Below are positions 3,365 through 21,180 of a stretch of DNA of 36,641 nt, piece by piece. Location: IMG/VR virus record IMGVR_UViG_2877285697_000003, positions 1 through 36,641 of that record; one strand, 5' to 3'. Numbering within the stretch: position 1 is the stretch's first letter; every line of letters begins with the position of its first letter. The notes beneath the pieces were generated by a model. It saw only the letters and a program-made list of their open reading frames with translations. It was not told the DNA's origin and did no database searches. Source of the stretch: a virus. Lineage: Duplodnaviria > Heunggongvirae > Uroviricota > Caudoviricetes. A program made the position numbers and the translations under genes.

Positions 3365-3566
3365 CCACTTCACAGTCCTCAATCGCTGGTTCCGTGACGG
3401 AAGGGGGCGTCGTGTTCACGTTATACGCTGGGAGCCTGAAACACAGCGGGTTATTTATCTGCGTGATGGTTATCCATATGAATGTTTCAGCCCGTTGTGG
3501 TTGTTCAGGCGTGATTTTGTGGAGTGTGAAGCGCCGCCGGAATGACGGCACGGTATATACGAAAAA

Positions 3567-3926
3567 TTACGTCGCCTTGCCCAGCGTAAAATCAAAGTGG
3601 ATGTCGTCATACGGGAATGACGTTCCGCGCTCGCTTTTTTCCAGTAAACCGTTGCTGATGAGTGCGGTCACGTCAGTATGCACGCTTTTTACATCACGTC
3701 CAACCAGGGCTGCAATTTTTCGGATGGACATTTCTCCGGCACCAGTCATTGCCATCAGAATGTCCATGCGTTTTGGTGTCAGTACCTTATGCATCATTTG
3801 CCAGTCAGGAAATGAAATAACGTTTTCTCTGGTTGCTTTTGCTCCGGTAGCTGCTTCCTGGAACGCAGACAGCACATCAGCCGTGAAATTATCCATTGAC
3901 TCGATTCGGATTGTTACGGTTCTCAT
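3567..3926 (-). CDS. Winged-helix HTH DNA-binding protein (about 119 aa from internal ATG; ORF track gives 151 aa)
   Basis: Helix-turn-helix-like segment ..EMSIRKIAALVGRDVKSVHTDVTALISNGLLEKSERG..; ATG at 3926 is 1 nt after the stop of the upstream 95-aa ORF (TGAcATG on the minus strand), suggesting a two-gene operon. Confidence 0.55.
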   Translation of the reverse strand: MRTVTIRIESMDNFTADVLSAFQEAATGAKATRENVISFPDWQMMHKVLTPKRMDILMAMTGAGEMSIRKIAALVGRDVKSVHTDVTALISNGLLEKSERGTSFPYDDIHFDFTLGKAT

Positions 3927-3927
3927 G

Positions 3928-4215
3928 TCAGATACCTCTGCGGATGGATTTAACGTCAGCCAGAAAATCAGCGAGCAGTTGTTCAATGGTGACAAAGCTG
4001 GTGCTGACTTCCTGACTACCAATGTGTTTGTGATCGCCTTTACCCCGTTCGTTGTCGTAACGCATCACACACATGCCATCAACGACATAAGCCATGCTGT
4101 ATTTGTAGTTGTGCTGGCTACCCAATACAGCAGGCTCCACTTCCCATATGCGGATTCGTATGTATTCAGATTCACCGAGATGACGGATGAACTGTTTATA
4201 CAGTCTGGATGGCAT
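3928..4215 (-). CDS. Hypothetical 95-aa protein, upstream partner of the HTH gene
   Basis: Complete ORF, stop codon 1 nt before the downstream HTH gene start; no family recognised by eye. Confidence 0.5.
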   Translation of the reverse strand: MPSRLYKQFIRHLGESEYIRIRIWEVEPAVLGSQHNYKYSMAYVVDGMCVMRYDNERGKGDHKHIGSQEVSTSFVTIEQLLADFLADVKSIRRGI

Positions 4216-4383
4216 TTAAAGCTTCCTCTGGTTCTTGTTGTAAACAATAACAACAAGGCTTCGCGTTGTCCACAGCTACAACATTTTGATATTGATTCTG
4301 CAAGTCCGGGACGTTACACTGTTCCGGCACCTTATAAAACGGGTGCCGGGATTTGCACCCCGGAATTGATCAAGGCGATATAC

Positions 4384-4405
4384 GACGCGCCAGCGTCTTT
4401 TTTAT
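4384..4405 (+). terminator. Hairpin plus T-run (GACGCGCCAGCGTC TTTTTTAT) inside the divergent intergenic region
   Basis: GC-rich inverted repeat followed by a 6-T run on the + strand, about 165 bp upstream of the Rha-like gene start; could be an attenuator or small-RNA terminator. Confidence 0.35.
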
Positions 4406-4569
4406 CGTCCACGCTCACGCACGCCAGAATTATGGTGGGCTGGGCAGGGGAGCCGAAAGGCTCGCCGGTTTCCTTGATCGCCGGTAGTGCAAACCCTGTT
4501 CAGTCCGCCACCAGCGAGATTTGCACCTCCGGTGGTGGAAGTATTTCACCGATCAAGGAGGCTGCCATT

Positions 4570-5301
4570 ATGGCTACGATCCCAGTTTCCCCATTCCTCA
4601 AAATCGAAGTCGTCAACGGTAAGGCCGTTACTACATCTCTTTTCGGATATCTCAAACTGTTGCGCCTTGCTGGTGTTCCGGGTTATATTTCTCGCGTTGC
4701 TGTAAATCCAGCAACCGGGCTTCGCATCCCGAAACATCACACAGGGCTGACACGCCATAAGCGTGTTTTTTTGTCTACGTACGTCTATTCAATGGCGGCT
4801 CAGATGGGAGCTTCTTCGGAAGCGCCGGTTTTCCCTTGTGTGTCCGGTAATGCGAATCCTGTCTGGGCTGCCACCAATCATGGTTTCGCATCCGTGGGTG
4901 GTAGCTGTAAAGCACACACACAAGGGGCTGTCACCATGACTACCACCACTACTCACCCATTCCTCAAAATCGAAGTCGTCAACGGCAAGGCCGTTATTTT
5001 CTCTTTGCATGTGGCCTGCTACTTTAAGCGCATGCACCAGAACATCGTCGACAAAATCGAGTATCTGAACTGCTCGCGCGAATTTTTTACCCGCAATTTC
5101 ATACCGGGTACTTACCACATCTATGACGACTCTCTGCGTGGTTATTACATCACCCTTGATGGTCTGATGATGCTTCAGCTTGGGTTAAGTCTGCGCACAA
5201 TGCGGTACTACGAGAGTTGCATTGAAGCGTTCCATGAGGCTGAAACCAGCCTGAATCATACCGCTTTCCGTCGTAATCAATGGGAGGCGCGTCATGTGTA
5301 A
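4570..5301 (+). CDS. Rha-family-like phage regulatory protein (C-terminal half Rha-like; alternative start at 4936)
   Basis: ATG at 4570 preceded by AAGGAGG; residues from 4936 (MTTTTTHPFLKIEVVNGKAVIFSL..YYITLDGLMMLQLGLS..IEAFHEAE) resemble Rha/antirepressor-type N-terminal domains; the motif PFLKIEVVNGKAV is encoded twice by a 39-bp direct repeat. Confidence 0.45.
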   Translation: MATIPVSPFLKIEVVNGKAVTTSLFGYLKLLRLAGVPGYISRVAVNPATGLRIPKHHTGLTRHKRVFLSTYVYSMAAQMGASSEAPVFPCVSGNANPVWAATNHGFASVGGSCKAHTQGAVTMTTTTTHPFLKIEVVNGKAVIFSLHVACYFKRMHQNIVDKIEYLNCSREFFTRNFIPGTYHIYDDSLRGYYITLDGLMMLQLGLSLRTMRYYESCIEAFHEAETSLNHTAFRRNQWEARHV

Positions 5302-5527
5302 TAACCATTATTCAGATACCACTGTCACGGTAATTAAAAACCTGATGGATGCGCTTATTGACATCTCTGTTATTGCAGACAGGGTGCATAAGCACGCCGC
5401 CACTGAAACAGAATATACCGGGGCTCTCGTTCCTCATTCACTGACTGTCATGCAAATTAGCGCCGACCAGGCGCTGGAAACAGCCAGCAAAATGCTCATG
5501 GCTGATGTGCAGGAGGTACGTCCATGA
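5294..5527 (+). CDS. Hypothetical protein (77 aa)
   Basis: ORF whose start overlaps the stop of the upstream gene and whose stop overlaps the next start (ATGA), i.e. translational coupling. Confidence 0.4.
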   Translation: MCNNHYSDTTVTVIKNLMDALIDISVIADRVHKHAATETEYTGALVPHSLTVMQISADQALETASKMLMADVQEVRP

Positions 5528-5748
5528 TTCGCCGCATCGTTAATTCTCTGTATCACCGATACAACCGTTGCCCCCGTGTGGGGCAGTGGTTTGCCACCAG
5601 CAACGGTCACGTTCTGCGGGTTTGCCTGGTCAGCACCGAAAACCAGAAAGTTGTGTGTGAATTACTGGGGCGTAGCTACACCATCAGTTACCCACTGGTG
5701 GTGTTTCAGTCCGGAAAAATGTTTAAACGCCTGGGAGGTGCTGTGTGA
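5524..5748 (+). CDS. Hypothetical protein (74 aa)
   Basis: ATGA overlap with the upstream ORF and GTGA overlap with the downstream ORF. Confidence 0.4.
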   Translation: MIRRIVNSLYHRYNRCPRVGQWFATSNGHVLRVCLVSTENQKVVCELLGRSYTISYPLVVFQSGKMFKRLGGAV

Positions 5749-6044
5749 ACTGTTTTCAGTTTGTGTGCGGAAGTGTTTTCGATAATCCGATTCAGCGCCT
5801 GATTATGTTGCGTGTTTGGATGTCGGGGTCTTCAGACGGGGAAGGTGAGAGAGTTATTGAGCACCAAGTGCTTGCCGATTTTTGTTGCTGTTCAAAACAA
5901 GCGATGTTCAGAGAAACCCTGGCCCTGGAAAGGGCGGGACATCTGCATATCCGAAAAATTGCAACGCTTACCATTGATGCAAAAGCCCGACTCCAGCCTG
6001 CCCGTGGTTACACAATTGTCATGCCGCGTAAGGAGGCTGTATGA
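5745..6044 (+). CDS. Hypothetical protein (99 aa, GTG start)
   Basis: GTG start overlapping the upstream stop; ATGA overlap with the next ORF. Confidence 0.4.
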   Translation: MNCFQFVCGSVFDNPIQRLIMLRVWMSGSSDGEGERVIEHQVLADFCCCSKQAMFRETLALERAGHLHIRKIATLTIDAKARLQPARGYTIVMPRKEAV

Positions 6045-6334
6045 GTCGTTATGCCCCCACACCGGAAGTTATGGCTATTGGTCAAATTAATATTTCCGGC
6101 AATGTCACACCGACAACCTGGTGGAAACATATCCAGCTACCCAGTGGGCGTCCGGATGCGACAGCCATTGCGCTGCTTTCAGAGATTGTTTACTGGTATC
6201 GCCCGACAGAAGTCAGGGATGAGCATACAGGGGCTTTACTGGGATATCGCAAGCGTTTTCAGGGTGACAAGCTGCAAAGAAGCTATCAGGCGTTTGCTGA
6301 GCAGTTTGGCTTTGGGAAAAGGGAAACCGCAGAT
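6041..6334 (+). pseudogene. Hypothetical gene, 3'-truncated by IS600 (stop codon supplied by the IS terminus)
   Basis: ORF runs straight into the IS600 end at 6335 (..GKRETAD then TGA from TGAGGTGTACTGG). Confidence 0.45.
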
Positions 6335-7365
6335 TGAGGTGTACTGGCAATAGCGGACACTACCATTTGTTCTTTTTTTAAGCAGCCATCTGATGGTATT
6401 TTTCCCTGAAGGCTGCCGGGGAGATATTCCCCAGACGAGAGTGACGACGCTGACGATTGTAGAAAATCTCAATGTATTCCCGTATTACTGAGATGGCTTC
6501 ATCCCGGTTATTAAAACGATAGTGGCTCAGGCTCTCATTTTTCAGCGTTCCCCAGAAGCTTTCCATCGGAGCGTTGTCGTAACAGTTACCTTTACGCGAC
6601 ATTGATGTTTTCAGACCAAACTGCTCCTGTATGACCCGGTAATCGTATGCGCAGTACTGTGAACCTCGATCAGAGTGGTGGATTAGCCCGGCAGGTGGGC
6701 GCTGGCTCCTGAGCGCCATAAACAGGGCTTTACCTGTCAGCTCTTTTGTCATGCGCTCTCCCATGGCGTAGCCGACAATTTCGCACGTATAAACATCTTT
6801 GATGCCAGCGAGGTACAACCATCCCTCCTGTGTGGCAACATACGTCAGGTCCGCCACCCAGACCTGATTTGGTGCTGTAGGAGCGAACGTCTGGTTCAGC
6901 AGATTTGGCGCAACTGGCAGATTGTGGTTCGGGTTCGTAGTCGCTCTGAACTTGCGTTTCTGCTTACAGCGTAGCCTTAGCTCCTTACGAAGACGTGCCA
7001 GTCGGTCACGACCAACGATGATGCCATTCTCTGCCAGCTCCGTCTGGAGCCGCCGGGTTCCATATGTTTCGCGAGTGCGGATATGTGCCACCTTAATCTC
7101 CAGTTTTAGCCGCTCATCACTTTGTTTTCTGTCTGAGGGTTCATGCTGTACCCAGTTGTAATAACCGCTCCTGGATACACCAAATACCTGACACATCGCT
7201 TCAATGGGAAATTGTTGTCGCCATTGTTCGATTAACGCGTATTTTTCAGCGACTCCTGTGCAAAATACGCTGTTGCTTTTTTTAATATATCTCGCTCAAG
7301 GCGAGCTTCATTTAACGCCTTACGCAGTTGCAGAATTTCAGATTCCAGTTCAGCCACCGTGCGGG
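6335..7365 (-). mobile_element. IS600 copy, 5'-truncated (about 1031 of 1264 bp; lacks IRL and first ~57 codons of orfA)
   Basis: Right terminus TGAGGTGTACTGGCAATAGCGG at 6335; identity to the complete copy (16287-17550) ends near 7365 inside orfA, where molR-like sequence begins. Confidence 0.85.
6378..7196 (-). CDS. IS600 orfB transposase (272 aa)
   Basis: Nearly identical to orfB of the complete IS600 at 16689-17507 (two substitutions); IS3-family catalytic core. Confidence 0.9.
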   Translation of the reverse strand: MCQVFGVSRSGYYNWVQHEPSDRKQSDERLKLEIKVAHIRTRETYGTRRLQTELAENGIIVGRDRLARLRKELRLRCKQKRKFRATTNPNHNLPVAPNLLNQTFAPTAPNQVWVADLTYVATQEGWLYLAGIKDVYTCEIVGYAMGERMTKELTGKALFMALRSQRPPAGLIHHSDRGSQYCAYDYRVIQEQFGLKTSMSRKGNCYDNAPMESFWGTLKNESLSHYRFNNRDEAISVIREYIEIFYNRQRRHSRLGNISPAAFREKYHQMAA

Positions 7366-8893
7366 AACGTGATCTGGCTCGCCAGTGGATTTTACAATGG
7401 CCGGAACATACGGCTAGTGCACTTATCCCTCTTGTCTTTACCAAACCCAGCGATAATAGCGAAGCCGCATTACTTGCCCTGCGTTTACTGTACGAACAGG
7501 GACATGGCGAATTGCTACAAACCGTGGCAAACCGCTGGCAGCGTACAGATGTATGGTCTGCCCTGGAGCAGTTGCTTAAACAGGGTCCAATGGACATTTA
7601 CCCGGCACGCATTCCAAAAGCCCCTGATTTCTGGCATCCGGCAATGTGGTCCAGGCCTTGACTTATCACTAATAATCAGCCTGTTACCGGTGACGCTCTG
7701 GAAATTATCGGCGAAATGCTGCGCTTTACCCAGGGGGGACGTTTTTATAGCGGGCTGGAACAACTGAAAACGTTCTGCCAGCCACAAACGCTGGCAGCTT
7801 TTGCCTGGGATCTCTTCACTGCGTGGCAACAAGCTGGTGCCCCCGCAAAAGACAACTGGGCATTTCTGGCGTTAAGTCTCTTTGGTGACGAAAGCACGGC
7901 ACGGGATCTGACGACACAGATCCTCGCCTGGCCACAAGAAGGCAAATCTGCCCGTGCTGTCAGCGGCCTGAACATCCTTACCCTGATGAATAATGATATG
8001 GCGCTGATACAGCTGCATCATATATCGCAACGGGCTAAATCCCGCCCCTTACGTGATAACGCGGCGGAATTTCTTCAGGTGGTCGCAGAAAATCGCGGGC
8101 TAAGCCAGGAAGAGCTAGCGGACAGATTAGTCCCAACCCTGGGCCTTGATGATCCGCAGGCGTTGAGTTTTGATTTTGGTCCCCGGCAGTTTACCGTTCG
8201 CTTCGATGAAAACCTCAACCCGGTTATCTTTGATCAGCAAAACGTTCGCCAGAAAAGCGTTCCCCGGTTGCGCGCCGATGACGATCAACTGAAAGCGCCC
8301 GAGGCACTGGCCCGACTAAAAGGGCTAAAAAAAGATGCTACTCAGGTGAGCAAAAACCTGCTCCCGCGTCTTGAAGCTGCCCTAGGTACCACCCGACGCT
8401 GGTCGCTGGCAGATTTTCATTCTCTGTTTGTTAATCATCCCTTTACCCGTCTGGTTACCCAGCGATTAATATGGGGGGGTTATCCGGCAAATGAACCGCG
8501 TTGTTTACTCAAAGCCTTTCGTGTGGCCGCAGAGGGGGAGTTCTGCAATGCGCAAGATGAGCCAATTGACCTGCCTGCGGACGCTCTGATTGGCATTGCC
8601 TACCCGTTAGAAATGACAGTAGAAATGCGCAGTGAATTTGCACAGCTTTTTGCCGATTACGAAATTATGCCGCCTTTTCGCCAGTTGTCGCGCCGCACGG
8701 TGCTGCTCACACCTGACGAGTCAACCAGTAACAGCCTGACTCGCTGGGAAGGTAAATCCGCTACCGTTGGGCAGCTTATGGGAATGCGATACAAAGGCTG
8801 GGAGTCAGGTTATGAGGACGCATTTGTCTATGACCTGGGTGAGTACCGGCTGGTCCTTAAGTTTTCACCCGGTTTTAACCACTACAATGTTGA
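7366..8893 (+). pseudogene. molR: molR/yehI-family (DUF4132-type) gene fragment: 5' part deleted at IS600, in-frame stop at 7659-7661, 3' end interrupted by IS1
   Basis: Two same-frame ORFs (7359-7661 and 7716-8915) separated by one stop codon; translation recalled as the large WGR/DUF4132 protein encoded next to metG in E. coli; the final codons MLPTY-stop come from the IS1 terminus. Confidence 0.6.
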
Positions 8894-9659
8894 GGTAATG
8901 CTGCCAACTTACTGATTTAGTGTATGATGGTGATTTTAAGGTGCTTGCGTGGCTTCCATTTCCATCAGATGTCCTTCCTGCTCCGCTACTGAAGGCGTGG
9001 TGCGTAACGGCAAAAGCACTGCCGGACATCAGCGCTATCTCTGCTCTCATTGCCAAAACATGGCAACTACAGTTCACTTACACCGCCTCTCAGCCCGGTA
9101 CGCACCAGAAAATCATTGATATGGCCATGAATGGCGTCGGATGTCGCGCCAGTGCACGCATTATGGGCGTTGGCCTCAACACGGTTTTACGTCACTTAAA
9201 AAACTCAGGCCGCAGTCGGTAACCTCGCGCATACAACCGGGCAGTGATGTGATTGTCTGCGCTGAAATGGACGAACAGTGGGGCTACGTCGGTGCTAAAT
9301 CACGTCAGCGCTGGCTGTTTTACGCGTATGACAGGATACGGAGGACGGTTGTGGCGCACGTCTTCGGTGAACGCACTCTGGCCACACTGGAGCGTCTTCT
9401 GAGCCTGCTGTCGGCCTTTGAGGTCGTGGTATGGATGACGGATGGCTGGCCGCTGTATGAATCACGCCTGAAGGGAAAGCTGCACGTTATCAGCAAGCGT
9501 TACACTCAGCGCATTGAGCGACATAATCTGAATCTGAGACAACATCTGGCAAGGCTGGGACGGAAGTCACTGTCGTTCTCAAAATCGGTGGAGCTGCATG
9601 ACAAGGTCATCGGGCATTATCTGAACATAAAACACTATCAGTAAGTTGGAGTCATTACC
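8894..9659 (+). mobile_element. IS1, full length but with a 2-bp deletion that frameshifts insA
   Basis: Ends GGTAATGCTGCCAACTTACTGAT.. and ..ATCAGTAAGTTGGAGTCATTACC; insA region TCTCATTGCC--AAAACATGG differs from canonical TCTCACTGCCGTAAAACATGG, so the InsA frame is broken; insB is intact. Confidence 0.9.
9141..9644 (+). CDS. insB: IS1 InsB
   Basis: 167-aa translation recognised as IS1 InsB (..[54 protein letters not shown]..). Confidence 0.9.
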
Positions 9660-9818
9660 TGAATAATCAACAGGTGCTTCTGGGTTACAGCTGGCTTGAC
9701 GATAAACTTGAGCTCTACCTCCTTAGCATCGGTCCACATGAAAATTTTTATACCGATCAGAAAAAACACCGAAAAGCTGATTTAAAACTCATCGGTTAGT
9801 CCTGACGTCATGCATACC

Positions 9819-9846
9819 AGCCCACGTAAACGCGTGGGCTTTTTCA
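9819..9846 (+). terminator. Rho-independent terminator-like hairpin (AGCCCACG taaa CGTGGGCT TTTT)
   Basis: Perfect 8-bp stem, 4-nt loop, followed by a T-run, about 150 bp upstream of the KilA-N gene. Confidence 0.5.
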
Positions 9847-9997
9847 TATCTGAATTTCACCGCGCACCGCAGCGCATGATAACCACCGAACCTGCCCCTT
9901 TGGAATGAGCCTTTGAGGATACCAGTTAGTGCTGGCGAGCCTCGGTGGGCTGGTTTCCTGTGCGGCAAAGGTTCATTTCAAAGAACAGGTATACGAC

Positions 9998-10495
9998 ATG
10001 AAATCATTAACCCTCTTCAATCAGCCAATCCGTATCGGTGAAGATGGCATGATCTGCCTCACTGATATGTGGAAAGCCAGTGGTAAAAGTGAATCTGAAT
10101 CTCCGTACCACTACCTGCGAAACAAGCAGACCAAAGAGTTCTTAGCCGAGCTGGAGAAAAACCACGAATCTGTGGTTTTTACTGAGCGCGGTGTACACGG
10201 TGAAACATATGGCGGGAAGTTTGTTGCTTATGATTATGCAGCATGGCTAAACCCCGGATTTAAATATGCAGCCTATAAAGTCCTGGATGACTACTTCACC
10301 GGAGAACTTCAGCATCGCAACAGCTTAAGTGCGCAGCTCAATATGAAGTGTCATGAGTTTGATCAGAAAAAAGATATGGCGAGCTTCTGTGGACAAGGGC
10401 TGGCGGCATGGCGCTATACGAAGCCAGTGTTGGTCGCTGAGATTAACTCCCTGGCTAACCAGCTGCAGATAACGATCCCCGGGCTTCCGGGATGA
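9998..10495 (+). CDS. KilA-N domain protein (phage antirepressor-like DNA-binding protein)
   Basis: Start chosen at ATG 9998 with upstream AGG; translation (..ICLTDMWKASGK.. GGKFVAYDYAAWLNPGFKYAAYKVLDDYF..) matches the KilA-N domain pattern. Confidence 0.7.
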   Translation: MKSLTLFNQPIRIGEDGMICLTDMWKASGKSESESPYHYLRNKQTKEFLAELEKNHESVVFTERGVHGETYGGKFVAYDYAAWLNPGFKYAAYKVLDDYFTGELQHRNSLSAQLNMKCHEFDQKKDMASFCGQGLAAWRYTKPVLVAEINSLANQLQITIPGLPG

Positions 10496-10749
10496 GTGAT
10501 CGTGTCATTGAATGCGCCTCCAGAGCGGGGCGCGACTTCTCAGAGTTCATGAAAGGCGAGAAGGGCATGATGGAAGCATTGGCCTCGGTGGATGAGTTTG
10601 GCGAGCAGCTGCGCCTCAACGGCTGTGTCAATCATCACTTTGTTAGCTACATGATGCGGAACTCGATCATGCAGGCATTCATGGACATGGCAAAAGCCGA
10701 GAGGAAAGAAGAGCGCCGGCGTAAGCGAGCGGAAGCAAAAGCGAAGTAG
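10492..10749 (+). CDS. Hypothetical 85-aa protein with basic C-terminal tail, translationally coupled to the KilA-N gene
   Basis: ATGA start/stop overlap with the upstream gene; C-terminus KAERKEERRRKRAEAKAK. Confidence 0.45.
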   Translation: MSDRVIECASRAGRDFSEFMKGEKGMMEALASVDEFGEQLRLNGCVNHHFVSYMMRNSIMQAFMDMAKAERKEERRRKRAEAKAK

Positions 10750-11164
10750 CCATTACAAAGCCCATCTACTGGTGGGCTTGATAATGGCTTATACCCTACA
10801 CGGGATAACTTAACTGATATCCCTTTTAACGGATAAAGGTATTCAAGCCTGACACATCATGCGCTGTATCGTCGCTGTATTCCCGCATTAACCATGACCG
10901 TAGCCCGACGGGGAACTCCTTCTGCGCGAGTGTGCGGGAATAATCAAAAACGATGCACACCGGGTTTTTACCGCGTTTATGGTTCGCGGGTTTGTCCCTC
11001 ATGCTCGCCAGTCCTGTGCGGGGGTGGAAGAAACAGGACACTTACACTGATTCTTGTGGGTACGATGCTATTCCTTTCTGGATTATCCCGATGTCATTCA
11101 TGCAGGGCGCTGTATCAGACGTTCGTCATGGCTGTCAGGCTGACGGGTCCTCCCGGTGGGGTGG

Positions 11165-11192
11165 CCTGCCACGGGGCGGGAGCGGCGCGGAA
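11165..11192. other. Candidate cos site (cosN-like GC-rich element) upstream of terS
   Basis: ACGGGGCGGGAGCGGCGCGG resembles the phage lambda cosN neighbourhood as recalled (ACGGGGCGGCGACCTCGCGGG), lies about 170-190 bp upstream of the terS start as in lambda, and is followed by a TTCGTCAT motif and a palindrome ACTGTAAT-N8-ATTACAGT (11234-11257). Confidence 0.4.
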
Positions 11193-11360
11193 AAAGGCTA
11201 GTTTTTGAAATTTCATTCGTCATCACCACTACTGTAATGTGTTGATATTACAGTGGTTTTATTTTTGTGGTGTCGATTTTGATTGTTTTTTTGTTCATCA
11301 CTAACACCGTTTGCCTAAAGTTGTTCGCAAGATGCATGTTTAAAACATTCTGGAGCGGGT

Positions 11361-11854
11361 ATGGATCGAGAGTTAAAAAATCTGACGCTGAATATCAGTC
11401 AACTGGCGGCACTGTCAGGTGTACATCGCCAGACTGCTGCGGCAAGGCTGCAAAATCTACCCGTTGCAGGGGGCATGAAAGCAACCTCAAGCTTTATCGG
11501 GTGGTTGATATTGTGTCGGCATTTCTGGCATTACCACCGCCGGTTGCAGAAGGCGAAATGGACGCGCATGAGCGCAAAGCCTGGTATCAGTCTGAACGTG
11601 AGCGTCTTAAGTTCGAACAGGAAACGGCACAACTCATTCCGGCCAGTGATGTCAGACGGGAGTTTGCCATCTGGGCAAAAGCGGTCGTGCAGGTGCTGGA
11701 GACATTACCGGATATTCTTGAACGTGACTGCGGTCTGCAGCCTGCCGCTGTGAGCCGTATTCAGTCCATTATTGATGATCTGCGCGATCAGATAGCCCTG
11801 CGGGTGACTGAAGCAGGTGCGGATGATGAGGAGGAATTACAGCAGGAGGAGTAA
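11361..11854 (+). pseudogene. Terminase small subunit (Nu1-like), frameshifted within a G-run near 11469-11477
   Basis: N-terminal HTH part (MDRELKNLTLNISQLAALSGVHRQTAAARLQNLPVAGG) is in one frame (ORF 11361-11753) and the remainder (HESNLKLYRVVDIV.. to stop at 11854) in another (ORF 11267-11854); junction at GCAGGGGGCATG. Confidence 0.7.
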
Positions 11855-13956
11855 TGCTGAATCAGGAAACCGCAAAGGCAGCACGAACCGATTCAGGTTA
11901 TATCCTTCGCGCACCAAGACGAATGCGGGTTGCTGATGCCGTTGCTCAGTATATGCGGGTGCCCATGGGGGCAGGGAACTCAGTCCCGTGGGATCCGCTG
12001 GTGGCACCGTATGTTATTGAGCCGATGAACTGCCTGGCCTCGCGTGAATACGACGCAGTGATATTTGTTGGCCCGGCACGAACCGGCAAGACTATCGGCC
12101 TGATTGACGGCTGGGTGATTTACAACGTGATTTGCGATCCTGCTGATATGCTGATCATTCAGATGACGGAGGAAAAAGCCCGCGAACACTCCAAAAAACG
12201 ACTCGCCAGAACGTTTCGCGTCAGCCCGGAAGTGGTCAGTCGCCTGAGTCCGAACAAAAATGACAACAACGTTTATGACAGAACATTCCTTGCTGGCAAC
12301 TACCTGAAAATCGGCTGGCCGTCAGTCAATATCATGTCCTCATCAGATTATAAATGCGTCGCGCTGACGGATTATGACCGTTTTCCGGAAGATATTGATG
12401 GTGAGGGGGATGCTTTCTCTCTTGCCTCAAAACGTACCACAACATTTATGTCCAGTGGTATGACGCTGGTGGAGAGTTCCCCCGGCAGGGATGTGAAGGA
12501 TGTGAAATGGCGACGGACTTCACCGCATGAGGCTCCACCAACCACGGGGATACTGTCGCTCTATAACCGTGGCGATCGCCGTCGCTGGTACTGGCCCTGT
12601 CCACACTGTGGTGAGTATTTTCAGCCCTGCGGCGATGTGGTTGCTGGTTTCCGTGATATTGCCGATCCCGTGCTGGCAAGTGAGGCGGCTTATATTCAGT
12701 GTCCTTCCTGTTCAGGACGGATTATGCCTGAACAAAAACGTGAGCTGAACGGACGTGGGGTCTGGTTGCGGGATGGTGAATCCATCAATGCGGATGGCAG
12801 TCGTTATGGTGATCCCAGGCGTTCACGTATTGCGTCATTCTGGATGGAGGGTCCGGCAGCTGCTTACCAGACACTCTCGCAACTCGTTTACAAACTGCTT
12901 ACTGCAGAACAGGAATACGAGACAACCGGAAGTGAAGAAACACTCAGGGCGGTTATCAACACCGACTGGGGATTACCTTATCTTCCCCGCGCCAGCATGG
13001 AGCAACGAAAAAGTGAACTGCTTGAGCAGCGGGCAGAGCCTGTTCCTCCCCGCTGCGTGCCGGATGGTGTTAATTTCCTGGCGGCGACAGTGGATGTGCA
13101 GGCGGGACGTCATCGCCGTTTTGTGGTTCAGGTAACGGGTTATGGTTGCCGTGGCGAACGCTGGATTATTGATCGTTACAACATCACGCAGTCATTGCGT
13201 TGTGACAACAACGGAGAAAGCCTGCGAATTGATCCTGCTGGTTATCCTGAGGACTGGGATGTCCTGCTGACGGATGTTTTTCATAAAAGCTGGCCGTTGG
13301 CCTCCGATCCTTCTCAACAAATGCGACTGATGGCAATGGCGGTGGACTCCGGCGGTGAAGACGGGGTCACTGATAATGCCTATAAATTCTGGCGTCGTTG
13401 CCGTCGTGATGGCCTTGGTAAACGTATTTACCTGTTTAAGGGCGACAGCATCCGACGCGCAAAACTGATCACCCGTACATTCCCTGATAACACCGGACGA
13501 ACGGGCCGACGGGCGCAGGCCGCAGGTGATGTGCCGCTCTGGCTTCTTCAGACGGATGCCCTGAAAGACCGGGTGAATAACGCGTTATGGCGTGACTCGC
13601 CAGGTCCCGGCTATGTGCATTTCCCTGACTGGCTGGGGAGCTGGTTTTACGACGAACTGACGTATGAAGAGCGGAGCAGTGACGGGAAATGGAGTAAGCC
13701 GGGTCGAGGTGCCAACGAAGCTTTTGACCTGATGGTGTATGCCGAGGCTCTGGTCATTCTGCATGGTTACGAGAAAATTCAGTGGCCGGATGCGCCGGAA
13801 TGGGCATGCAGGGAAACCTGGCTGGAGCGTGTCAGGGACGATGCCGGACTGTCAGCCTCGCCGGAGCCGATATCCGTGTCCGTTAAAAAAAAGAAACGAA
13901 AAAAAGTGGTGCCTGATGAAGAAAACCCATGGGTGACTTCCGGAGGATGGTTGTGA
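11854..13956 (+). CDS. Terminase large subunit (lambda gpA family), 700 aa
   Basis: ATG overlaps the terS stop (TAATG); translation has the gpA-family ATPase region (..VIFVGPARTGKT..) and length typical of lambda-type TerL. Confidence 0.9.
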   Translation: MLNQETAKAARTDSGYILRAPRRMRVADAVAQYMRVPMGAGNSVPWDPLVAPYVIEPMNCLASREYDAVIFVGPARTGKTIGLIDGWVIYNVICDPADMLIIQMTEEKAREHSKKRLARTFRVSPEVVSRLSPNKNDNNVYDRTFLAGNYLKIGWPSVNIMSSSDYKCVALTDYDRFPEDIDGEGDAFSLASKRTTTFMSSGMTLVESSPGRDVKDVKWRRTSPHEAPPTTGILSLYNRGDRRRWYWPCPHCGEYFQPCGDVVAGFRDIADPVLASEAAYIQCPSCSGRIMPEQKRELNGRGVWLRDGESINADGSRYGDPRRSRIASFWMEGPAAAYQTLSQLVYKLLTAEQEYETTGSEETLRAVINTDWGLPYLPRASMEQRKSELLEQRAEPVPPRCVPDGVNFLAATVDVQAGRHRRFVVQVTGYGCRGERWIIDRYNITQSLRCDNNGESLRIDPAGYPEDWDVLLTDVFHKSWPLASDPSQQMRLMAMAVDSGGEDGVTDNAYKFWRRCRRDGLGKRIYLFKGDSIRRAKLITRTFPDNTGRTGRRAQAAGDVPLWLLQTDALKDRVNNALWRDSPGPGYVHFPDWLGSWFYDELTYEERSSDGKWSKPGRGANEAFDLMVYAEALVILHGYEKIQWPDAPEWACRETWLERVRDDAGLSASPEPISVSVKKKKRKKVVPDEENPWVTSGGWL

Positions 13957-14165
13957 ACCAGAATGATATTGAAGCCATGATCCATCGTTATATCAATGCG
14001 GAAATGGCAGTGCTGGACGGAAAGTCCATTACTTTTAATGGTCAGCAGATGACCATGGAAAACTTATCCGAGATCCGACAGGGGCGGCAGGAGTGGGAAC
14101 GTCGCCTTGCGACTCTGGCTGCGCGGCGACGGGGGAAGCCGGGCTATAAACTGGCGAGGTTCTGA
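13953..14165 (+). CDS. Head-tail joining protein, gpW-like
   Basis: Small ORF between terL and portal, position as in lambda; GTG at 13953 preceded by GGAGG; stop overlaps the portal ATG (TGATG). Confidence 0.6.
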   Translation: MNQNDIEAMIHRYINAEMAVLDGKSITFNGQQMTMENLSEIRQGRQEWERRLATLAARRRGKPGYKLARF

Positions 14166-15670
14166 TGGCAATTCTTGATGATGTTATTGGTGTTTTTTCA
14201 CCTGGCTGGAAAGCTGCGAGATTGCGCTCAAGGGCATTAATTCGTGCCTATGAGGCAGTGAAGCCTACTCGTACACATAAAGCCCGGCGGGAAAATCGTT
14301 CTGCCGACCAGCTCAGTAAGTACGGTGCAGTTTCCCTGCGGGAGCAGGCTCGTTTTCTGGACATCAATCATGATCTGGTAATCGGTGTTTTCGACAAACT
14401 TGAGGAACGGGTGATTGGTGCAAAAGGGATCGTTGTCGAACCCCAGCCATTACTGAAGAACGGTGATATAGCCACAGAGCTGGCAATGATTCTCCGTCGC
14501 TTGTGGGTGGAATGGTCTGTCAGTCCGGATGTGACCGGGCAGTATACGCGCCCCATGCTCGAGCGTCTGCTGCTGCGTACCTGGTTACGTGATGGTGAAG
14601 TGTTTGCCCAGCTGGTTCGTGGTGCCGGCGGCGGGCTGGTGCGGACTGCTGGCGTGCCTTTCTGGATCGAGGCAATGGAGCCGGATTTTGTGCCCATGCT
14701 CAGTGATGAATCTGTGGGGTTGAATCAGGGTGTTTTTCTGGATGACTGGGGCAGACCGAAAAAATACCTGGTTTATAAAAATCATCCGACTACCGGGCGG
14801 CTGAGTGATACCAAAGAGATCGTTGCCGAAAATATGGTGCATCTGAAATTTACCCGTCGTCTGCATCAGACGCGTGGTACATCCATGTTGTCAGGTGTGC
14901 TGATGCGGATCAGTGCGCTTAAGGAATATGAAGATGCTGAGCTGACAGCGGCGCGTGTTGCTGCGGCTCTGGGGCTGTATATCCGTAAAGGAGATGGGCA
15001 GGATTATGAAGACGCCACGATAAATAAAGATAATGACCGGGAACTGCATATCACCCCTGGCATTATTTATGACGATTTGCGCAAGGGGGAAGATATTGGC
15101 ATGGTCAAATCTGATCGGCCCAATCCTAACCTTGAAACTTTTCGTAACGGGCAGCTGCGTGCGGTGGCCGCAGGCAGTCGTATGAGTTTTTCCAGTGCGG
15201 CGCGCAATTACAACGGTACCTACAGCGCTCAGCGACAGGAGCTGGTCGAGTCCACTGACGGCTATCTGATCCTGCAGGACTGCTTTATTGGCGCTGTAAC
15301 CCGTCCCGTGTACCGGACGTGGCTGAACATGGTGGTAGCAGCAGGTCTGCTGAAAATCCCGTCGGATGTGGATATGAAAACGTTGTGTAACGCAACATAT
15401 TCCGGTCCGGTCATGCCGTGGATTGATCCGGTTAAGGAGGCTGAGGCCTGGAAAATCCAGATTCGCGGTGGAGCGGCGACAGAATCAGACTGGGTGCGAG
15501 CAGGTGGGCGTAATCCGGATGATGTCAAACGTCGGCGCAAGGCTGAAATTGATGAAAACCGCAAGCTGGGTCTGATATTTGATACCGATCCGGCCAGTAA
15601 TAAAGGAGGCAGCAGTGTCGCAACGAAACGACTGGAGCCGCAGCACACCGACGGCCAGTCCGAAGAATAA
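14165..15670 (+). CDS. Portal protein (lambda gpB family), 501 aa
   Basis: Position after terL and gpW, size and sequence consistent with lambda-family portal proteins. Confidence 0.85.
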   Translation: MAILDDVIGVFSPGWKAARLRSRALIRAYEAVKPTRTHKARRENRSADQLSKYGAVSLREQARFLDINHDLVIGVFDKLEERVIGAKGIVVEPQPLLKNGDIATELAMILRRLWVEWSVSPDVTGQYTRPMLERLLLRTWLRDGEVFAQLVRGAGGGLVRTAGVPFWIEAMEPDFVPMLSDESVGLNQGVFLDDWGRPKKYLVYKNHPTTGRLSDTKEIVAENMVHLKFTRRLHQTRGTSMLSGVLMRISALKEYEDAELTAARVAAALGLYIRKGDGQDYEDATINKDNDRELHITPGIIYDDLRKGEDIGMVKSDRPNPNLETFRNGQLRAVAAGSRMSFSSAARNYNGTYSAQRQELVESTDGYLILQDCFIGAVTRPVYRTWLNMVVAAGLLKIPSDVDMKTLCNATYSGPVMPWIDPVKEAEAWKIQIRGGAATESDWVRAGGRNPDDVKRRRKAEIDENRKLGLIFDTDPASNKGGSSVATKRLEPQHTDGQSEE

Positions 15671-15683
15671 TTCCTGGTTCAGG

Positions 15684-16289
15684 ATGCAGGCAGGTCACCA
15701 GAGTGACGCGGATATTTATATTTATGACGAGATTGGTTTCTGGGGTGTTACGGCGAAGCAGTTTATCAGTGATCTGAATGCACTGGGCGATATCACCCAC
15801 ATTAATCTCCATATCAATTCACCGGGTGGCGATGTCTTTGAAGGCATCGCCATTTTTAATGCACTGAAAACACATGGTGCGTCCATTACCGTTTATGTCG
15901 ACGGTGTGGCGGCATCAATGGCGTCGGTCATTGCGATGGTGGGAAACCCGGTCATTATGCCGGAAAACACCTTCATGATGATTCATAAACCATTTGGCTT
16001 TACGGGCGGTGATGCGGAGGACATGCGCACCTATGCCGACCTGCTCGATAAAGTTGAGGCGGTTCTGTTACCCGCTTATGCACAGAAAACCGGGAAAACC
16101 ATCGATGAAGTTGCTGCCATGCTGGCGGATGAGACCTGGATGTCCGGTGCCGAATGTCTGGCACATGGATTTGCTGATCAGGTGACGCCAGCCGTTAAGG
16201 CAATGGCATGTATTCAGTCAAAACGTACAGAGGAATTTAAAAAGATGCCGGAATCCATTCGAAACATGATTACTCCGCCACGCAACTGA
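15684..16289 (+). CDS. ClpP/S14-family prohead protease; stop codon provided by the IS600 terminus
   Basis: Translation (..HINSPGGDVFEGIAIFNALK.. SMASVIAMVG.. MIHKP..) has ClpP-like Ser/His motifs; start set at ATG 15684 just after the portal stop (ORF track start 15579 overlaps portal); TGA at 16287-16289 is the first 3 nt of the IS600 IRL. Confidence 0.8.
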   Translation: MQAGHQSDADIYIYDEIGFWGVTAKQFISDLNALGDITHINLHINSPGGDVFEGIAIFNALKTHGASITVYVDGVAASMASVIAMVGNPVIMPENTFMMIHKPFGFTGGDAEDMRTYADLLDKVEAVLLPAYAQKTGKTIDEVAAMLADETWMSGAECLAHGFADQVTPAVKAMACIQSKRTEEFKKMPESIRNMITPPRN

Positions 16290-16350
16290 GGTAGCCTGAG
16301 TTTAACGGACACTCCTTCCTGAAATAGAATGGCATCAGAAGGAGCTAATA

Positions 16351-16653
16351 ATGAGCAGAAAAACCCAACGTTACTCTAAAGAGTTCAAAGCCGAAGCTGT
16401 CAGAACGGTTCTTGAAAATCAACTTTCGATCAGTGAAGGCGCTTCCCGATTATCCCTTCCTGAAGGCACTTTAGGACAATGGGTTACCGCCGCCAGAAAA
16501 GGGCTCGGTACTCCTGGCTCCCGCACGGTGGCTGAACTGGAATCTGAAATTCTGCAACTGCGTAAGGCGTTAAATGAAGCTCGCCTTGAGCGAGATATAT
16601 TAAAAAAAGCAACAGCGTATTTTGCACAGGAGTCGCTGAAAAATACGCGTTAA
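16351..16653 (+). CDS. IS600 OrfA
   Basis: 100-aa ORF MSRKTQRYSKEFKAEAVRTV.. with HTH and leucine-zipper-like C-terminus, as in IS3-family OrfA proteins. Confidence 0.9.
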   Translation: MSRKTQRYSKEFKAEAVRTVLENQLSISEGASRLSLPEGTLGQWVTAARKGLGTPGSRTVAELESEILQLRKALNEARLERDILKKATAYFAQESLKNTR

Positions 16654-16688
16654 TCGAACAATGGCGACAACAATTTCCCATTGAAGCG

Positions 16689-17507
16689 ATGTGTCAGGTA
16701 TTTGGTGTATCCAGGAGCGGTTATTACAACTGGGTACAGCATGAACCCTCAGACAGAAAACAAAGTGATGAGCGGCTAAAACTGGAGATTAAGGTGGCAC
16801 ATATCCGCACTCGCGAAACATATGGAACCCGGCGGCTCCAGACGGAGCTGGCAGAGAATGGCATCATCGTTGGTCGTGACCGACTGGCACGTCTTCGTAA
16901 GGAGCTAAGGCTACGCTGTAAGCAGAAACGCAAGTTCAGAGCGACTACGAACCCGAACCACAATCTGCCAGTTGCGCCAAATCTGCTGAACCAGACGTTC
17001 GCTCCTACAGCACCAAATCAGGTCTGGGTGGCGGACCTGACGTATGTTGCCACACAGGAGGGATGGTTGTACCTCGCTGGCATCAAAGATGTTTATACGT
17101 GCGAAATTGTCGGCTACGCCATGGGAGAGCGCATGACAAAAGAGCTGACAGGTAAAGCCCTGTTTATGGCGCTCAGGAGCCAGCGCCCACCTGCCGGGCT
17201 AATCCACCACTCTGATCGAGGTTCACAGTACTGCGCATACGATTACCGGGTCATACAGGAGCAGTCTGGTCTGAAAACATCAATGTCGCGTAAAGGTAAC
17301 TGTTACGGCAACGCTCCGATGGAAAGCTTCTGGGGAACGCTGAAAAATGAGAGCCTGAGCCACTATCGTTTTAATAACCGGGATGAAGCCATCTCAGTAA
17401 TACGGGAATACATTGAGATTTTCTACAATCGTCAGCGTCGTCACTCTCGTCTGGGGAATATCTCCCCGGCAGCCTTCAGGGAAAAATATCATCAGATGGC
17501 TGCTTAA
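16689..17507 (+). CDS. IS600 OrfB transposase
   Basis: 272-aa ORF; differs from the copy at 6378-7196 by two substitutions (F->S and D->G in ..VIQEQSGLKTSMSRKGNCYGNAPME..). Confidence 0.9.
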   Translation: MCQVFGVSRSGYYNWVQHEPSDRKQSDERLKLEIKVAHIRTRETYGTRRLQTELAENGIIVGRDRLARLRKELRLRCKQKRKFRATTNPNHNLPVAPNLLNQTFAPTAPNQVWVADLTYVATQEGWLYLAGIKDVYTCEIVGYAMGERMTKELTGKALFMALRSQRPPAGLIHHSDRGSQYCAYDYRVIQEQSGLKTSMSRKGNCYGNAPMESFWGTLKNESLSHYRFNNRDEAISVIREYIEIFYNRQRRHSRLGNISPAAFREKYHQMAA

Positions 17508-17550
17508 AAAAAGAACAAATGGTAGTGTCCGCTATTGCCAGTACACCTCA

Positions 17551-17765
17551 GAATTATCCTTCGCTTGCTCCACATACCCCTTCTTCACCTTCTCCGCAAT
17601 CAGCTTAAGCTCCGCTTTTGCCGCTGCCGCAGCATCTGAAAAACTTTTTATCTGGCTTTGCCCTTTGGTGCCAACTTTTCCCCAACTGATATGCAACTCG
17701 TTTCCCTGTTGCTCAACTGCCCAGAATTTATGTGATTTTTCGTCCTGATAGATAAAGTGTCTCAT
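17551..17765 (-). pseudogene. molR: molR-family gene, N-terminal WGR-domain fragment, truncated by IS600
   Basis: Translation MRHFIYQDEKSHKFWAVEQQGNELHISWGKVGTKGQSQIKSF.. has the WGR motif; the last residues (EVYWQ-stop) are read from the IS600 terminus; lies directly downstream of metG as molR does in E. coli. Confidence 0.6.
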
Positions 17766-17864
17766 TCTGCATCCCTGTAATTTTATCCAGTTGAATGCAG
17801 ATGCTACCAGTATTTATGCGGGTTAGAGAGAGACAAAATCGCAAGAAAACAACTTTAGGAATTT

Positions 17865-17896
17865 ATAAAGAAAAGGCGCTGTCGATGCAGCGCCTT
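17865..17896 (-). terminator. Rho-independent terminator downstream of metG
   Basis: On the minus strand AAGGCGCTG catcgac CAGCGCCTT followed by a T-rich run, about 10 bp after the metG stop. Confidence 0.6.
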
Positions 17897-17905
17897 GAAG
17901 GGGGA

Positions 17906-19939
17906 TTATTTCACCTGATGGCCTGGTTTAGCACCAGCATCCGGGCTTAACAGGAAGATATCTTTCCCGCCAGGACCAGCAGCCATTACCATGCCTTCGG
18001 AGATACCAAAGCGCATTTTACGCGGTGCCAGGTTGGCCACCATAATGGTGTGACGCCCGATCAGTGCCTGCGGATCCGGGTAGGCAGAACGAATACCGGA
18101 GAAGACATTGCGTTTTTCACCGCCGAGATCCAGTGTCAGGCGCAGCAGTTTGTCAGAACCTTCAACAAACTCTGCGTTTTCGATCAGCGCCACGCGCAGG
18201 TCAACTTTTGCGAAGTCGTCAAAGGTGATGGTTTCCTGAATCGGATCATCTGCCAGTGGGCCAGTAACTGGCGCGGCAGCTGCTTTCACTTCTTCTTTAG
18301 ACGCTTCCACCAGTGCTTCAACCTGCTTCATATCGATGCGGTTATACAGCGCTTTGAACGGATTCACTTTGTGGCCCAGCAGCGGTTGCTGGATACCATC
18401 CCAGGTCAGTTCTGTATTGAGGAATGCTTCTGCGCGCTCGGTCAGTTTCGGCAGTACCGGCTTCAGGTAAGTCATCAGCACGCGGAACAGGTTTATGCCC
18501 ATTGAGCAAATTGCCTGCAGGTCGGCATCGCGGCCTTCCTGTTTTGCCACCACCCACGGAGCCTGCTCGTCGACATAGCGGTTAGCCAGATCAGCCAGCG
18601 CCATGATTTCGCGCACTGCTTTACCAAATTCGCGGCTTTCCCACGCTTCACCAATCACTTCAGCGGCATCAGTGAAGGTTTTGTACAACTGCGGGTCAGC
18701 CAGTTCGCTTGCCAGCACGCCGTCAAAACGCTTGTTGATAAAGCCCGCATTACGAGAGGCCAGGTTAACCACTTTGTTCACGATATCGGCATTCACACGC
18801 TGAACGAAATCCTCCAGGTTGAGATCGATATCATCAATGCGCGAAGAGAGTTTCGTAGTGTAGTAGTAACGCAGGCTGTCAGCGTCAAAATGATTCAGCC
18901 AGGTGCTGGCTTTAATAAAGGTGCCGCGAGACTTGGACATCTTTGCGCCGTTCACCGTCACATAGCCATGAACAAACAGGTTGGTCGGCTTGCGGAAGTT
19001 GCTGCCTTCCAGCATGGCAGGCCAGAACAGGCTGTGGAAGTAAACAATATCTTTACCGATGAAGTGGTACAGCTCGGCGGTGGAGTCTTTCTTCCAGTAT
19101 TCATCGAAGCTTACGCTGTCGCCGCGCTTGTCGCACAGATTCTTGAAAGAACCCATGTAGCCAATCGGTGCGTCCAGCCAGACGTAGAAATATTTGCCCG
19201 GCGCGTTCGGAATTTCAAAACCAAAGTATGGCGCGTCGCGGGAGATATCCCACTGTTGCAGGCCGGATTCAAACCACTCCTGCATTTTATTTGCCACCTG
19301 CTCCTGCAACGCACCGCTGCGGGTCCATGCCTGCAACATTTCGCTGAAAGAGGGCAGATCAAAGAAGAAGTGTTCAGAATCACGCATTACCGGCGTAGCG
19401 CCAGAAACCACCGATTTCGGCTCGATCAATTCAGTCGGGCTGTAGGTCGCGCCGCAGACTTCGCAGTTATCGCCGTATTGATCCGGGGATTTACATTTCG
19501 GGCAGGTGCCTTTCACAAAACGGTCCGGCAGGAACATGCCTTTTTCCGGATCGTACAGCTGAGAGATGGTGCGGTTTTTAATAAAACCGTTCTCTTTCAG
19601 GCGAGAGTAGATAAGTTCTGACAACTGGCGGTTCTCTTCGCTGTGCGTCGAGTGATAGTTGTCATAGCTGATGTTAAAGCCTGCGAAATCAGTCTGATGC
19701 TCCTGACTCATTTCGCCAATCATCTGCTCCGGGGTGATACCAAGCTGCTGAGCTTTCAGCATGATCGGTGTACCGTGGGCATCGTCGGCGCAGATGAAGT
19801 TGACCTCGTGGCCGCGCATTCGCTGGTAACGGACCCAGACATCAGCCTGGATGTGCTCCAGCATATGGCCGAGGTGGATTGAGCCGTTAGCGTACGGCAG
19901 TGCGCACGTCACCAGAATTTTCTTCGCGACTTGAGTCAT
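17906..19939 (-). CDS. metG: Methionine--tRNA ligase
   Basis: Translation matches MetG over its full length (HIGH-type ..[14 protein letters not shown].. and KMSKS motifs, C-terminal tRNA-binding domain); start placed at [10 protein letters not shown]. Confidence 0.97.
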
Positions 19940-20070
19940 AGTAGGCATTACTTCTTAATAGTGAAAAGGGGTTAGATAGTACCAAATGGGAAAATGTTAA
20001 GTAAGTACTTCTCTATATTCTTCAGGTAAACTATCAGCTGATGGTTTATCTATACAAAAAAGGAGTCGGG

Positions 20071-21180
20071 ATGAACGAACAATCCCAGGCCAAATCACCA
20101 GAAGCCTTGCGCGCAATGGTCGCCGGGACACTGGCCAATTTTCAGCACCCAACCCTGAAGCATAACCTCACCACGCTGAAAGCGTTGCACCATGTCGCCT
20201 GGATGGACGACACGTTGCATGTGGAACTGGTTATGCCATTCGTCTGGCATAGCGCGTTTGAAGAGTTAAAAGAGCAATGTAGCGCCGAACTGCTGCGTAT
20301 CACCGGGGCGAAAGCTATCGACTGGAAACTGTCGCACAATATCGCCACCTTAAAACGCGTGAAGAATCAGCCGGGTATTAATGGTGTGAAGAACATCATT
20401 GCGGTCAGTTCCGGTAAAGGCGGCGTGGGTAAATCCTCCACGGCGGTAAACCTGGCGCTGGCACTGGCGGCGGAAGGGGCGAAAGTCGGCATTCTGGACG
20501 CCGATATCTACGGCCCATCAATTCCCACCATGCTGGGCGCAGAAAATCAGCGTCCAACTTCGCCGGACGGTACCCATATGGCACCGATTATGTCTCATGG
20601 CCTGGCAACCAATTCAATTGGTTATCTGGTCACTGACGACAATGCGATGGTGTGGCGTGGACCGATGGCGAGCAAGGCGTTAATGCAGATGTTGCAGGAA
20701 ACCTTGTGGCCGGATCTCGACTATCTGGTGCTTGATATGCCGCCAGGCACCGGTGACATTCAATTGACGCTGGCGCAAAACATTCCAGTAACTGGTGCAG
20801 TCGTGGTCACCACCCCGCAGGACATCGCGTTGATCGATGCGAAAAAAGGCATTGTGATGTTCGAGAAAGTCGAGGTTCCGGTGCTTGGTATTGTCGAGAA
20901 CATGAGTGTGCATATTTGCAGTAACTGTGGTCACCATGAACCGATTTTCGGTACCGGTGGTGCAGAGAAACTGGCTGAAAAATACCACACACAGCTGCTG
21001 GGGCAGATGCCGTTACACATCTCCTTACGTGAGGATCTCGATAAAGGCACGCCAACGGTTATCAGCCGTCCGGAGAGCGAATTTACCGCTATCTACCGCC
21101 AGCTGGCTGACCGCGTTGCAGCTCAGCTCTACTGGCAGGGTGAAGTCATTCCAGGCGAGATTTCCTTCCGCGCGGTCTAA
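20071..21180 (+). CDS. apbC: Iron-sulfur cluster carrier ATPase ApbC (Mrp)
   Basis: Translation from MNEQSQAK.. with Walker A (SGKGGVGKSS) and CxxC (CSNCGH); divergent from metG as in E. coli. Confidence 0.95.
   Translation: MNEQSQAKSPEALRAMVAGTLANFQHPTLKHNLTTLKALHHVAWMDDTLHVELVMPFVWHSAFEELKEQCSAELLRITGAKAIDWKLSHNIATLKRVKNQPGINGVKNIIAVSSGKGGVGKSSTAVNLALALAAEGAKVGILDADIYGPSIPTMLGAENQRPTSPDGTHMAPIMSHGLATNSIGYLVTDDNAMVWRGPMASKALMQMLQETLWPDLDYLVLDMPPGTGDIQLTLAQNIPVTGAVVVTTPQDIALIDAKKGIVMFEKVEVPVLGIVENMSVHICSNCGHHEPIFGTGGAEKLAEKYHTQLLGQMPLHISLREDLDKGTPTVISRPESEFTAIYRQLADRVAAQLYWQGEVIPGEISFRAV

Follow-up and report, generated by a model that had tools for sequence, protein, structure and literature searches.

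Two fragments of molR-like genes lie 9.8 kb apart, on opposite strands, in the IMG/VR virus record IMGVR_UViG_2877285697_000003 (36,641 nucleotides (nt), analysed over its whole length and called here the window), and each of them adjoins a copy of the insertion sequence (IS) IS600. This arrangement raises the question of whether they are the halves of one molR-family gene separated by a single IS600-mediated inversion, as an earlier note on this DNA had proposed. We found that the fragments are the remnants of two adjacent same-strand paralogues, molR and yehI, and not of one gene; their present positions were probably reached through a deletion and several IS-driven inversions in a Shigella chromosome. 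The window corresponds to about 846.4-883.0 kb of CP026827.1, a finished 4.56-Mb Shigella assembly labelled Shigella dysenteriae that clusters with S. boydii (PMC10501659); this remark on the species label was the sole yield of a literature search on the accession.

The smaller fragment (17551-17765, minus strand) is an N-terminal stub of molR (nt 1-215, codons 1-71). The corresponding open reading frame (ORF, 17532-17765, minus strand) encodes a WGR domain (Pfam, E=1.9e-20), and the stub was identical to molR of DH5alpha at 215/215 nt and at 71/71 amino acids (MolR residues 1-71). It has retained its position next to metG and abuts, on its other side, the right end of a complete IS600, as previously described. 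No counterpart of the stub sequence was found in YehI, a protein without a WGR N-terminus. The larger fragment (7368-8893, plus strand, 1526 nt), inverted relative to metG, encodes a DUF4132 domain (Pfam, E=1.2e-44) and aligned without gaps to nt 1981-3506 (codons 661-1169) of yehI, with a DNA identity of 98.1% to the DH5alpha gene and of 99.7% to other E. coli alleles. Its predicted protein was 97.4% identical to YehI versus 43.9% to MolR, and at the DNA level it showed no match to molR, so that it is not collinear with the gene of the stub; the intact MolR and YehI themselves share about 38% identity along most of their length. The assignment of both pieces to a single gene was in error, the alignments placing them in different paralogues, an outcome that the earlier note itself had named as refuting its idea, and they should be annotated as molR' and yehI' and not as halves of one gene. 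The features described within the DUF4132 fragment did hold, with its left limit moved from 7366 to 7368: the in-frame TGA at 7659-7661 corresponds to a CGA to TGA change (R758* of yehI), and an IS1 (8894-9659) interrupts the 3' end at yehI nt 3506. Both molR' and yehI' are non-functional remnants. We observed also that 12 of the 13 amino acid differences from K-12 YehI are gathered in codons 1000-1118 (8385-8720); as other E. coli alleles are 99.7% identical to the fragment, these clustered differences look like allelic (recombinant) variation and not like decay.

A rearrangement can still account for the two fragments, because molR and yehI lie side by side and point in the same direction; in DH5alpha the gene order is metG-molR-yehI-yehK. 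In this K-12-type layout the DNA missing between them amounts to 5,568 bp (molR nt 216/217-3795, a 9-bp spacer and yehI nt 1-1980), and the about 2 kb given previously was an underestimate. FDAARGOS_944, the genome taken as layout reference, carries three WGR/DUF4132 paralogues between metG and yehK (locus L018, 20130-33359), two of which are interrupted, one by an IS4 and one by an ISEc60, and the N-terminus of the additional paralogue matched window positions 17564-17754 at 88.5%. The deletion may exceed 5.57 kb, because the ancestor may have had three paralogues as well.

The IS600 copies bordering the fragments were then compared. The complete copy (16287-17550, plus strand, 1264 bp) shows TGAGG...CCTCA termini and the Pfam domains HTH_Tnp_1 in orfA and rve in orfB; its left inverted repeat (IRL) faces an interrupted capsid gene (capsid') and its right inverted repeat (IRR) faces molR'. 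The second copy (minus strand), correctly recognized as inverted and devoid of its 5' end, was found to extend from 6335 to 7366, one position further than reported, and comprises nt 233-1264; its IRR end at 6335 faces a prophage block and its cut end at 7366 faces yehI'. A third, partial copy (1428-2124, minus strand, nt 569-1264) has its IRR end against a truncated xis gene (xis') and is cut by an IS911. The complete copy has the length, the TGAGG termini and the orfA and orfB domains of IS600, a member of the IS3 family, and was 99.3-99.8% identical to RefSeq-annotated copies in FDAARGOS_943, in FDAARGOS_944 and at another locus of this genome; for the CFSAN029787 copy the identity was 98.3%. 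Unlike typical IS600 insertions, two of the three window copies are cut short, one at nt 233 and the other at nt 569, and none of the three is flanked by a 3-bp target duplication, the flanks being AAC and GAA for the complete copy and GAT on the IRR side of the copy at 6335-7366; a missing duplication is what is expected for recombinant copies. The inverted repeat formed by 6335-7366 and 16519-17550 spans 1032 nt with 99.7% identity. Its three mismatches are located in the outer parts (IS600 nt 980, 1022 and 1203) and nt 233-979 are identical, so the crossover point cannot be placed from single-nucleotide differences. The four IS600 ends, namely IRR against the early region of the prophage, nt 233 against yehI, IRL against capsid' and IRR against molR, are distributed in a way that fits the prediction for a reciprocal crossover between inverted copies.

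The present order could also be only apparent if the assembly had mis-resolved the orientation of segments lying between identical IS copies, or if these segments were flipping in culture. Contigs from other short-read runs matched the window at 100% over 7339-8920, on the yehI' side, and at 99.975% with one mismatch over 17523-21471, on the molR'-metG side; because these independent contigs match across both fragment/IS junctions, the junctions are real and not assembly errors. Among the runs sharing the junctions are SRR1811698, ERR5984648, SRR23530431 and ERR212279. The arrangement is carried by one complete assembly, and the related data are short-read contigs ending inside ISs, which support the junctions and not the long-range order; to this extent an artefact or a mixed population would agree with the data. 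Against it, the 4.56-Mb assembly is finished, and in such assemblies long reads normally run right across IS copies of 0.3-1.3 kb; the IS600 copies can be told apart at three sites; and mis-orienting any single IS pair would not give back the ancestral order. We regard this explanation as very unlikely.

Blocks of the window were compared by BLAST with FDAARGOS_944, in which the ancestral order is mlrA-[lambdoid ipaH prophage]-btsS-btsR-yehS...yehK-yehI-molR-metG-apbC-yehE. This gave a signed order of +1 +2 -7 +4 +8 -3 +5, followed by +6 outside the window. Block +1 (1-1427) carries int and xis', block +2 (3375-6334) the early-right region of the prophage, block -7 (7368-8893) yehI', block +4 (9660-16286) the packaging genes, block +8 (17551-21445) molR'-metG-apbC, block -3 (22998-26674) the inverted replication/Q/tRNA region and block +5 (27972-36641) the J'-lom-tail fibre-ipaH region; btsS, btsR, yehS and yehR (block +6) follow beyond the window. 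Both yehI' and the molR'-metG-apbC block are located inside the decayed ipaH prophage, whose ends and packaging block have kept their native orientation to one another.

This order bears directly on the proposal of one molR-family gene opened by a single IS600 inversion of 7367-16286 together with a deletion of about 2 kb. The IS600 copies are indeed inverted and 99.7% identical, and the flip between them sets the DUF4132 fragment beside the WGR stub on the same strand, restoring metG-molR'-[truncated IS600]-'yehI collinearity on one side. On the other side, however, the flip yields an early region joined to an inverted packaging block, which is not ancestral, so that collinearity is not recovered at both breakpoints. 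With the flip undone, the packaging block would point the wrong way with respect to int and J-ipaH, the metG block would still lie in the prophage and the replication block at 22998-26674 would still be inverted; the fragments belong to different genes with 5.57 kb missing between them. As a complete explanation the single inversion is refuted, and in its literal form we give it almost no credence; an inverted IS pair around gene fragments does not by itself prove one inversion.

An exhaustive search of signed block orders, in which inversions only were allowed and the flank beyond block 6 was taken as collinear, gave a minimum of four inversions, reached by 10 equally short orders. The breakpoints form two independent three-cycles. 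In the first, {2R|3L, 4R|5L, 7R|8L} became {2R|7R, 4R|8L, 3L|5L}, and the present junctions carry IS600, IS600 and ISEc60; in the second, {3R|4L, 6R|7L, 8R|9L} became {4L|7L, 3R|8R, 6R|9L}, with an IS1, an IS1 remnant and a third junction that lies outside the window. In all 10 minimal orders the yehI|molR adjacency was broken by an exchange with a different junction belonging to the first cycle, and none of these scenarios can do without an IS600 x IS600 exchange that parts yehI' from molR'. The IS600-mediated inversion of the earlier note was in this respect well founded, and fell short as the only event, because the packaging block is now in native orientation, the metG block sits within the prophage and the orientation of the replication block is reversed. 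Its exact exchange occurs in four of the minimal orders, and in just two does it come last and flip the 9-kb segment seen today.

The same multi-step scrambling could have used another IS600 partner, located either at 2R|3L, within a phage hypothetical gene, or at 4R|5L, within the capsid gene. The six other minimal orders do so, and the distribution of the IS600 ends is equally compatible with them. These routes predict, however, an IS600 at the junction of the replication block with J', where a recombinant ISEc60 (IS4 family, 26675-27971, plus strand) was found, and both junctions flanking it are documented independently as older ISEc60 insertions. The left junction, between a truncated DnaC-like gene (DnaC-like') and the left end of ISEc60, was base for base that of FDAARGOS_943 (locus L002, 1218-1306), a genome that has the replication block in its native orientation and retains no more than about 88 nt of ISEc60. 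The right junction, between ISEc60 and J', was identical to one in a second prophage carried by this genome (locus L021, 8640-9990), where tail gene J contains a simple ISEc60 insertion flanked by a duplication of 8-9 bp, GG(G)AAACGT. Because these parental insertions are inverted and the replication block runs opposite to J', the element bears the signature of an ISEc60 x ISEc60 inversion. The ISEc60 route favours the IS600 exchange of the earlier note, because the alternatives predict IS600 where ISEc60 is found, and we consider an exchange with one of the other two IS600 partners to be unlikely.

The deletion and the successive inversions may be arranged in the following history, which we consider likely. 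An IS600 would have inserted in molR at nt 215/216, and an illegitimate deletion from IS600 nt 232/233 to yehI nt 1980 would have removed at least 5.57 kb, leaving yehI'-[IS600 nt 233-1264]-molR'. Separately, inverted ISEc60 copies in the DnaC-like gene and in tail gene J would have recombined, inverting the replication-to-tail segment of the prophage and bringing an IS600 in the phage hypothetical gene and an IS600 in the capsid gene into direct orientation. Recombination between these direct copies, with loss of the DNA between them, would have joined the early region through one IS600 to the inverted packaging block. The fused IS600 would next have recombined with the truncated IS600 of yehI'/molR', giving early region|truncated IS600|yehI' on one side and capsid'|IS600|molR' on the other. 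Two more inversions would have led to the present order, by way of IS1 copies located in the ParE region of the phage, at yehI nt 3506 and at the start of yehE; the IS600-type and IS1-type events are left unordered relative to each other in this model. A sixth junction is predicted, joining yehK and the yehI 3' end through an IS1 to yehE, with the IRR end of the IS1 facing yehI and a duplicate of the approximately 9 bp ending at yehI nt 3506 (CAATGTTGA if 9 bp). It would be expected near 895-897 kb of CP026827.1, with yehQ-yehP-yehM-yehL-yehK-yehI nt 3633-3507 on one side of the IS1 and, on the other, yehE starting at nt 4 and then yehD.

The IS1 elements suggest a different route for the yehI fragment, which might have been brought into the prophage by transposition, as a composite or one-ended IS event, and not by homologous recombination. 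Acting within one molecule, IS1 is known to invert or delete DNA and to leave a second copy of itself in inverted orientation, and the window has IS1 copies that face opposite ways at 8894-9659 and 21446-21748. The first is complete (766 bp, plus strand), with its IRL facing yehI nt 3506, its IRR facing phage DNA and no target-site duplication; the second is a remnant (nt 464-766, minus strand) whose IRR faces the yehE ATG. However, the yehI fragment is bordered by two different ISs and shows no target duplications, and the truncated IS600 could not be mobilised because its left end is missing. A replicative IS1 inversion is moreover topologically the same as the IS1 steps of the recombination history given above, and we hold a transpositional origin of the fragment to be highly improbable.

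Several observations weigh against the history by deletion and recombination. Base 7367 (A) belongs neither to IS600 nor to yehI, the corresponding next position being G in both, and the model offers no mechanism for the cut of IS600 at nt 233. The IS600 target duplications cannot be matched up, as the available flanks do not pair, one copy being truncated and the partner flanks deleted. The sixth junction lies outside the window and was not seen, in a look-up that started from the truncated J ORF and extended only to yehR; one starting from the methyltransferase gene, whose protein is too widespread, gave nothing but unrelated genomes. Among complete E. coli genomes, none carried the IS600|molR or the truncated IS600|yehI junction, nor was an intermediate arrangement found, and an exact-match scan of the GTDB species representatives for the truncated IS600|yehI junction, the only one scanned, was also negative. 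The count of four inversions rests on the inversions-only and collinear-flank assumptions. Exchange between prophages, which also took place, could alter the history: window positions 26675-34281 and a stretch of the second ipaH prophage, near aspS/ruvC (locus L021, 8682-16288; CP026827.1 about 1.14 Mb), are 100% identical over 7,607 nt comprising ISEc60, J', lom, the tail fibre gene, the DUF4376 gene and the 3' part of ipaH. That this identity ends inside ipaH suggests, from the sequences compared, a recent gene conversion or crossover between the two prophages.

Two further candidates were examined and rejected. Enteroinvasive E. coli (EIEC) O121 strain 201805972 was considered as a carrier of the junction, and was found to have an independent complete IS600 at yehI nt 2000-2003 (locus L022, 11069-12332), in the same orientation, with its target duplication and 20 bp from the IS600|yehI junction of the window; molR is also split in this strain, by an IS421. 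An inversion between the two IS911 copies (copy a, 2125-3374, plus strand, and copy b, 21749-22997, minus strand, inverted relative to each other) was tried as a simplifying step, and undoing it gave an adjacency that is not ancestral. For each IS911, insertion into another IS and a subsequent deletion next to it offer the better explanation; for copy a this deletion concerns the early-left region of the prophage. FDAARGOS_944 also has an IS911 in xis, 77 bp beyond the IS600-fragment/IS911 site of the window (1428-3374), which suggests an old shared insertion followed by local deletions.

Every block junction of the window carries an IS: a partial IS600 with IS911, a truncated IS600, IS1, IS600, an IS1 remnant with IS911, and ISEc60. 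No matching target duplication was found at any of them, and inverted pairs of the same IS are present at the breakpoints for IS600 (6335-7366 and 16287-17550) and IS1 (8894-9659 and 21446-21748), together with the recombinant ISEc60. IS-mediated inversion and pseudogenisation are known in Shigella: of 114 inversions reconstructed for a set of E. coli and Shigella, 103 were placed on Shigella branches (PMC8072062), and the impact of ISs on Shigella evolution is among the subjects of PMC7373316. The window resembles these cases in that every breakpoint carries an IS1, an IS600, an IS911 or an IS4-family element; it shares with them inverted paired copies, genes cut at IS ends and essential genes that are kept. 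It is the same in kind, but locally dense, with six breakpoints in 27 kb, and in it a prophage and the metG-yeh region of the chromosome have become intermingled. The locus is an ordinary example of the already known IS-driven genome decay of Shigella, here neutral and sparing metG and apbC, and no function is implied. It provides a compact worked example of how a prophage and essential genes of the chromosome can become interspersed through three IS families, and has little importance beyond annotation. The relocation of metG-apbC to the inside of the remnant, between inverted IS600 and IS1 copies, could be imagined not to be neutral and to anchor the remnant and its ipaH against loss through large IS-mediated deletions, or the inverted IS pairs could still flip; we consider either idea improbable. 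If the pairs did flip at a measurable frequency, the lineage would include isolates that differ in orientation.

The metG (17906-19939, minus strand) and apbC (20071-21180, plus strand) genes are both intact and, with the yehE start codon, make up the rest of block 8 (17906-21445), which is in ancestral orientation relative to mlrA. We noted that the intergenic region shared by these essential genes is kept, with an IS600 on one side and the IS1 remnant and IS911 on the other.

The surrounding prophage is a lambdoid ipaH prophage integrated at mlrA (yehV). The mlrA end (1-54) marks the integration side, and the tyrosine integrase gene of block 1 (75-1361, minus strand, Pfam Phage_integrase) lies in an mlrA-int region 100% identical to that of FDAARGOS_944. 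The early-right block (2/A; 3375-6334, plus strand) encodes DUF4222, TumE, ash and hypothetical proteins, was 99.9% identical to a CFSAN029787 prophage (locus L003, 9001-11961) and ends within a hypothetical gene of 993 nt. The packaging block (4/C; 9660-16286, plus strand), 99.7% identical to FDAARGOS_943 (locus L002, 9001-15628), contains a truncated ParE gene and genes for KilA-N, DUF1441, the terminase large subunit, the portal protein and a ClpP/capsid fusion, the last cut by IS600 at 16286/16287. The inverted replication/Q block (3/B; 22998-26674, minus strand) carries four tRNAs, Q, NinH, a DnaB-like helicase and DnaC-like', and the distal block 5 (27972-36641, plus strand) carries J', lom, a tail fibre gene, a DUF4376 gene, ipaH (33334-34977, minus strand), a methyltransferase gene and DinI. 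Compared with the ipaH prophages at mlrA/yehV of FDAARGOS_944 and EIEC, the window copy has a 100% identical integrase, the same attachment side and packaging and tail-ipaH modules of 97-99.6% identity; it differs in being fragmented, without early-left, lysis and head-tail genes, and in having one inverted block and the embedded yehI' and molR'-metG-apbC.

Two minor features of these blocks were also recorded. The four-tRNA cluster (23283-23593, minus strand) comprises tRNA-Gly (TCC), tRNA-Thr (TGT), tRNA-Arg (TCT) and a tRNA with a CAT anticodon, assigned to Met by ARAGORN; the corresponding gene of related prophages is annotated as tRNA-Ile by RefSeq. In the ash-family region, a direct repeat of 100 nt (4531-4630 and 4897-4996, 74% identity) probably represents tandem ash paralogues.

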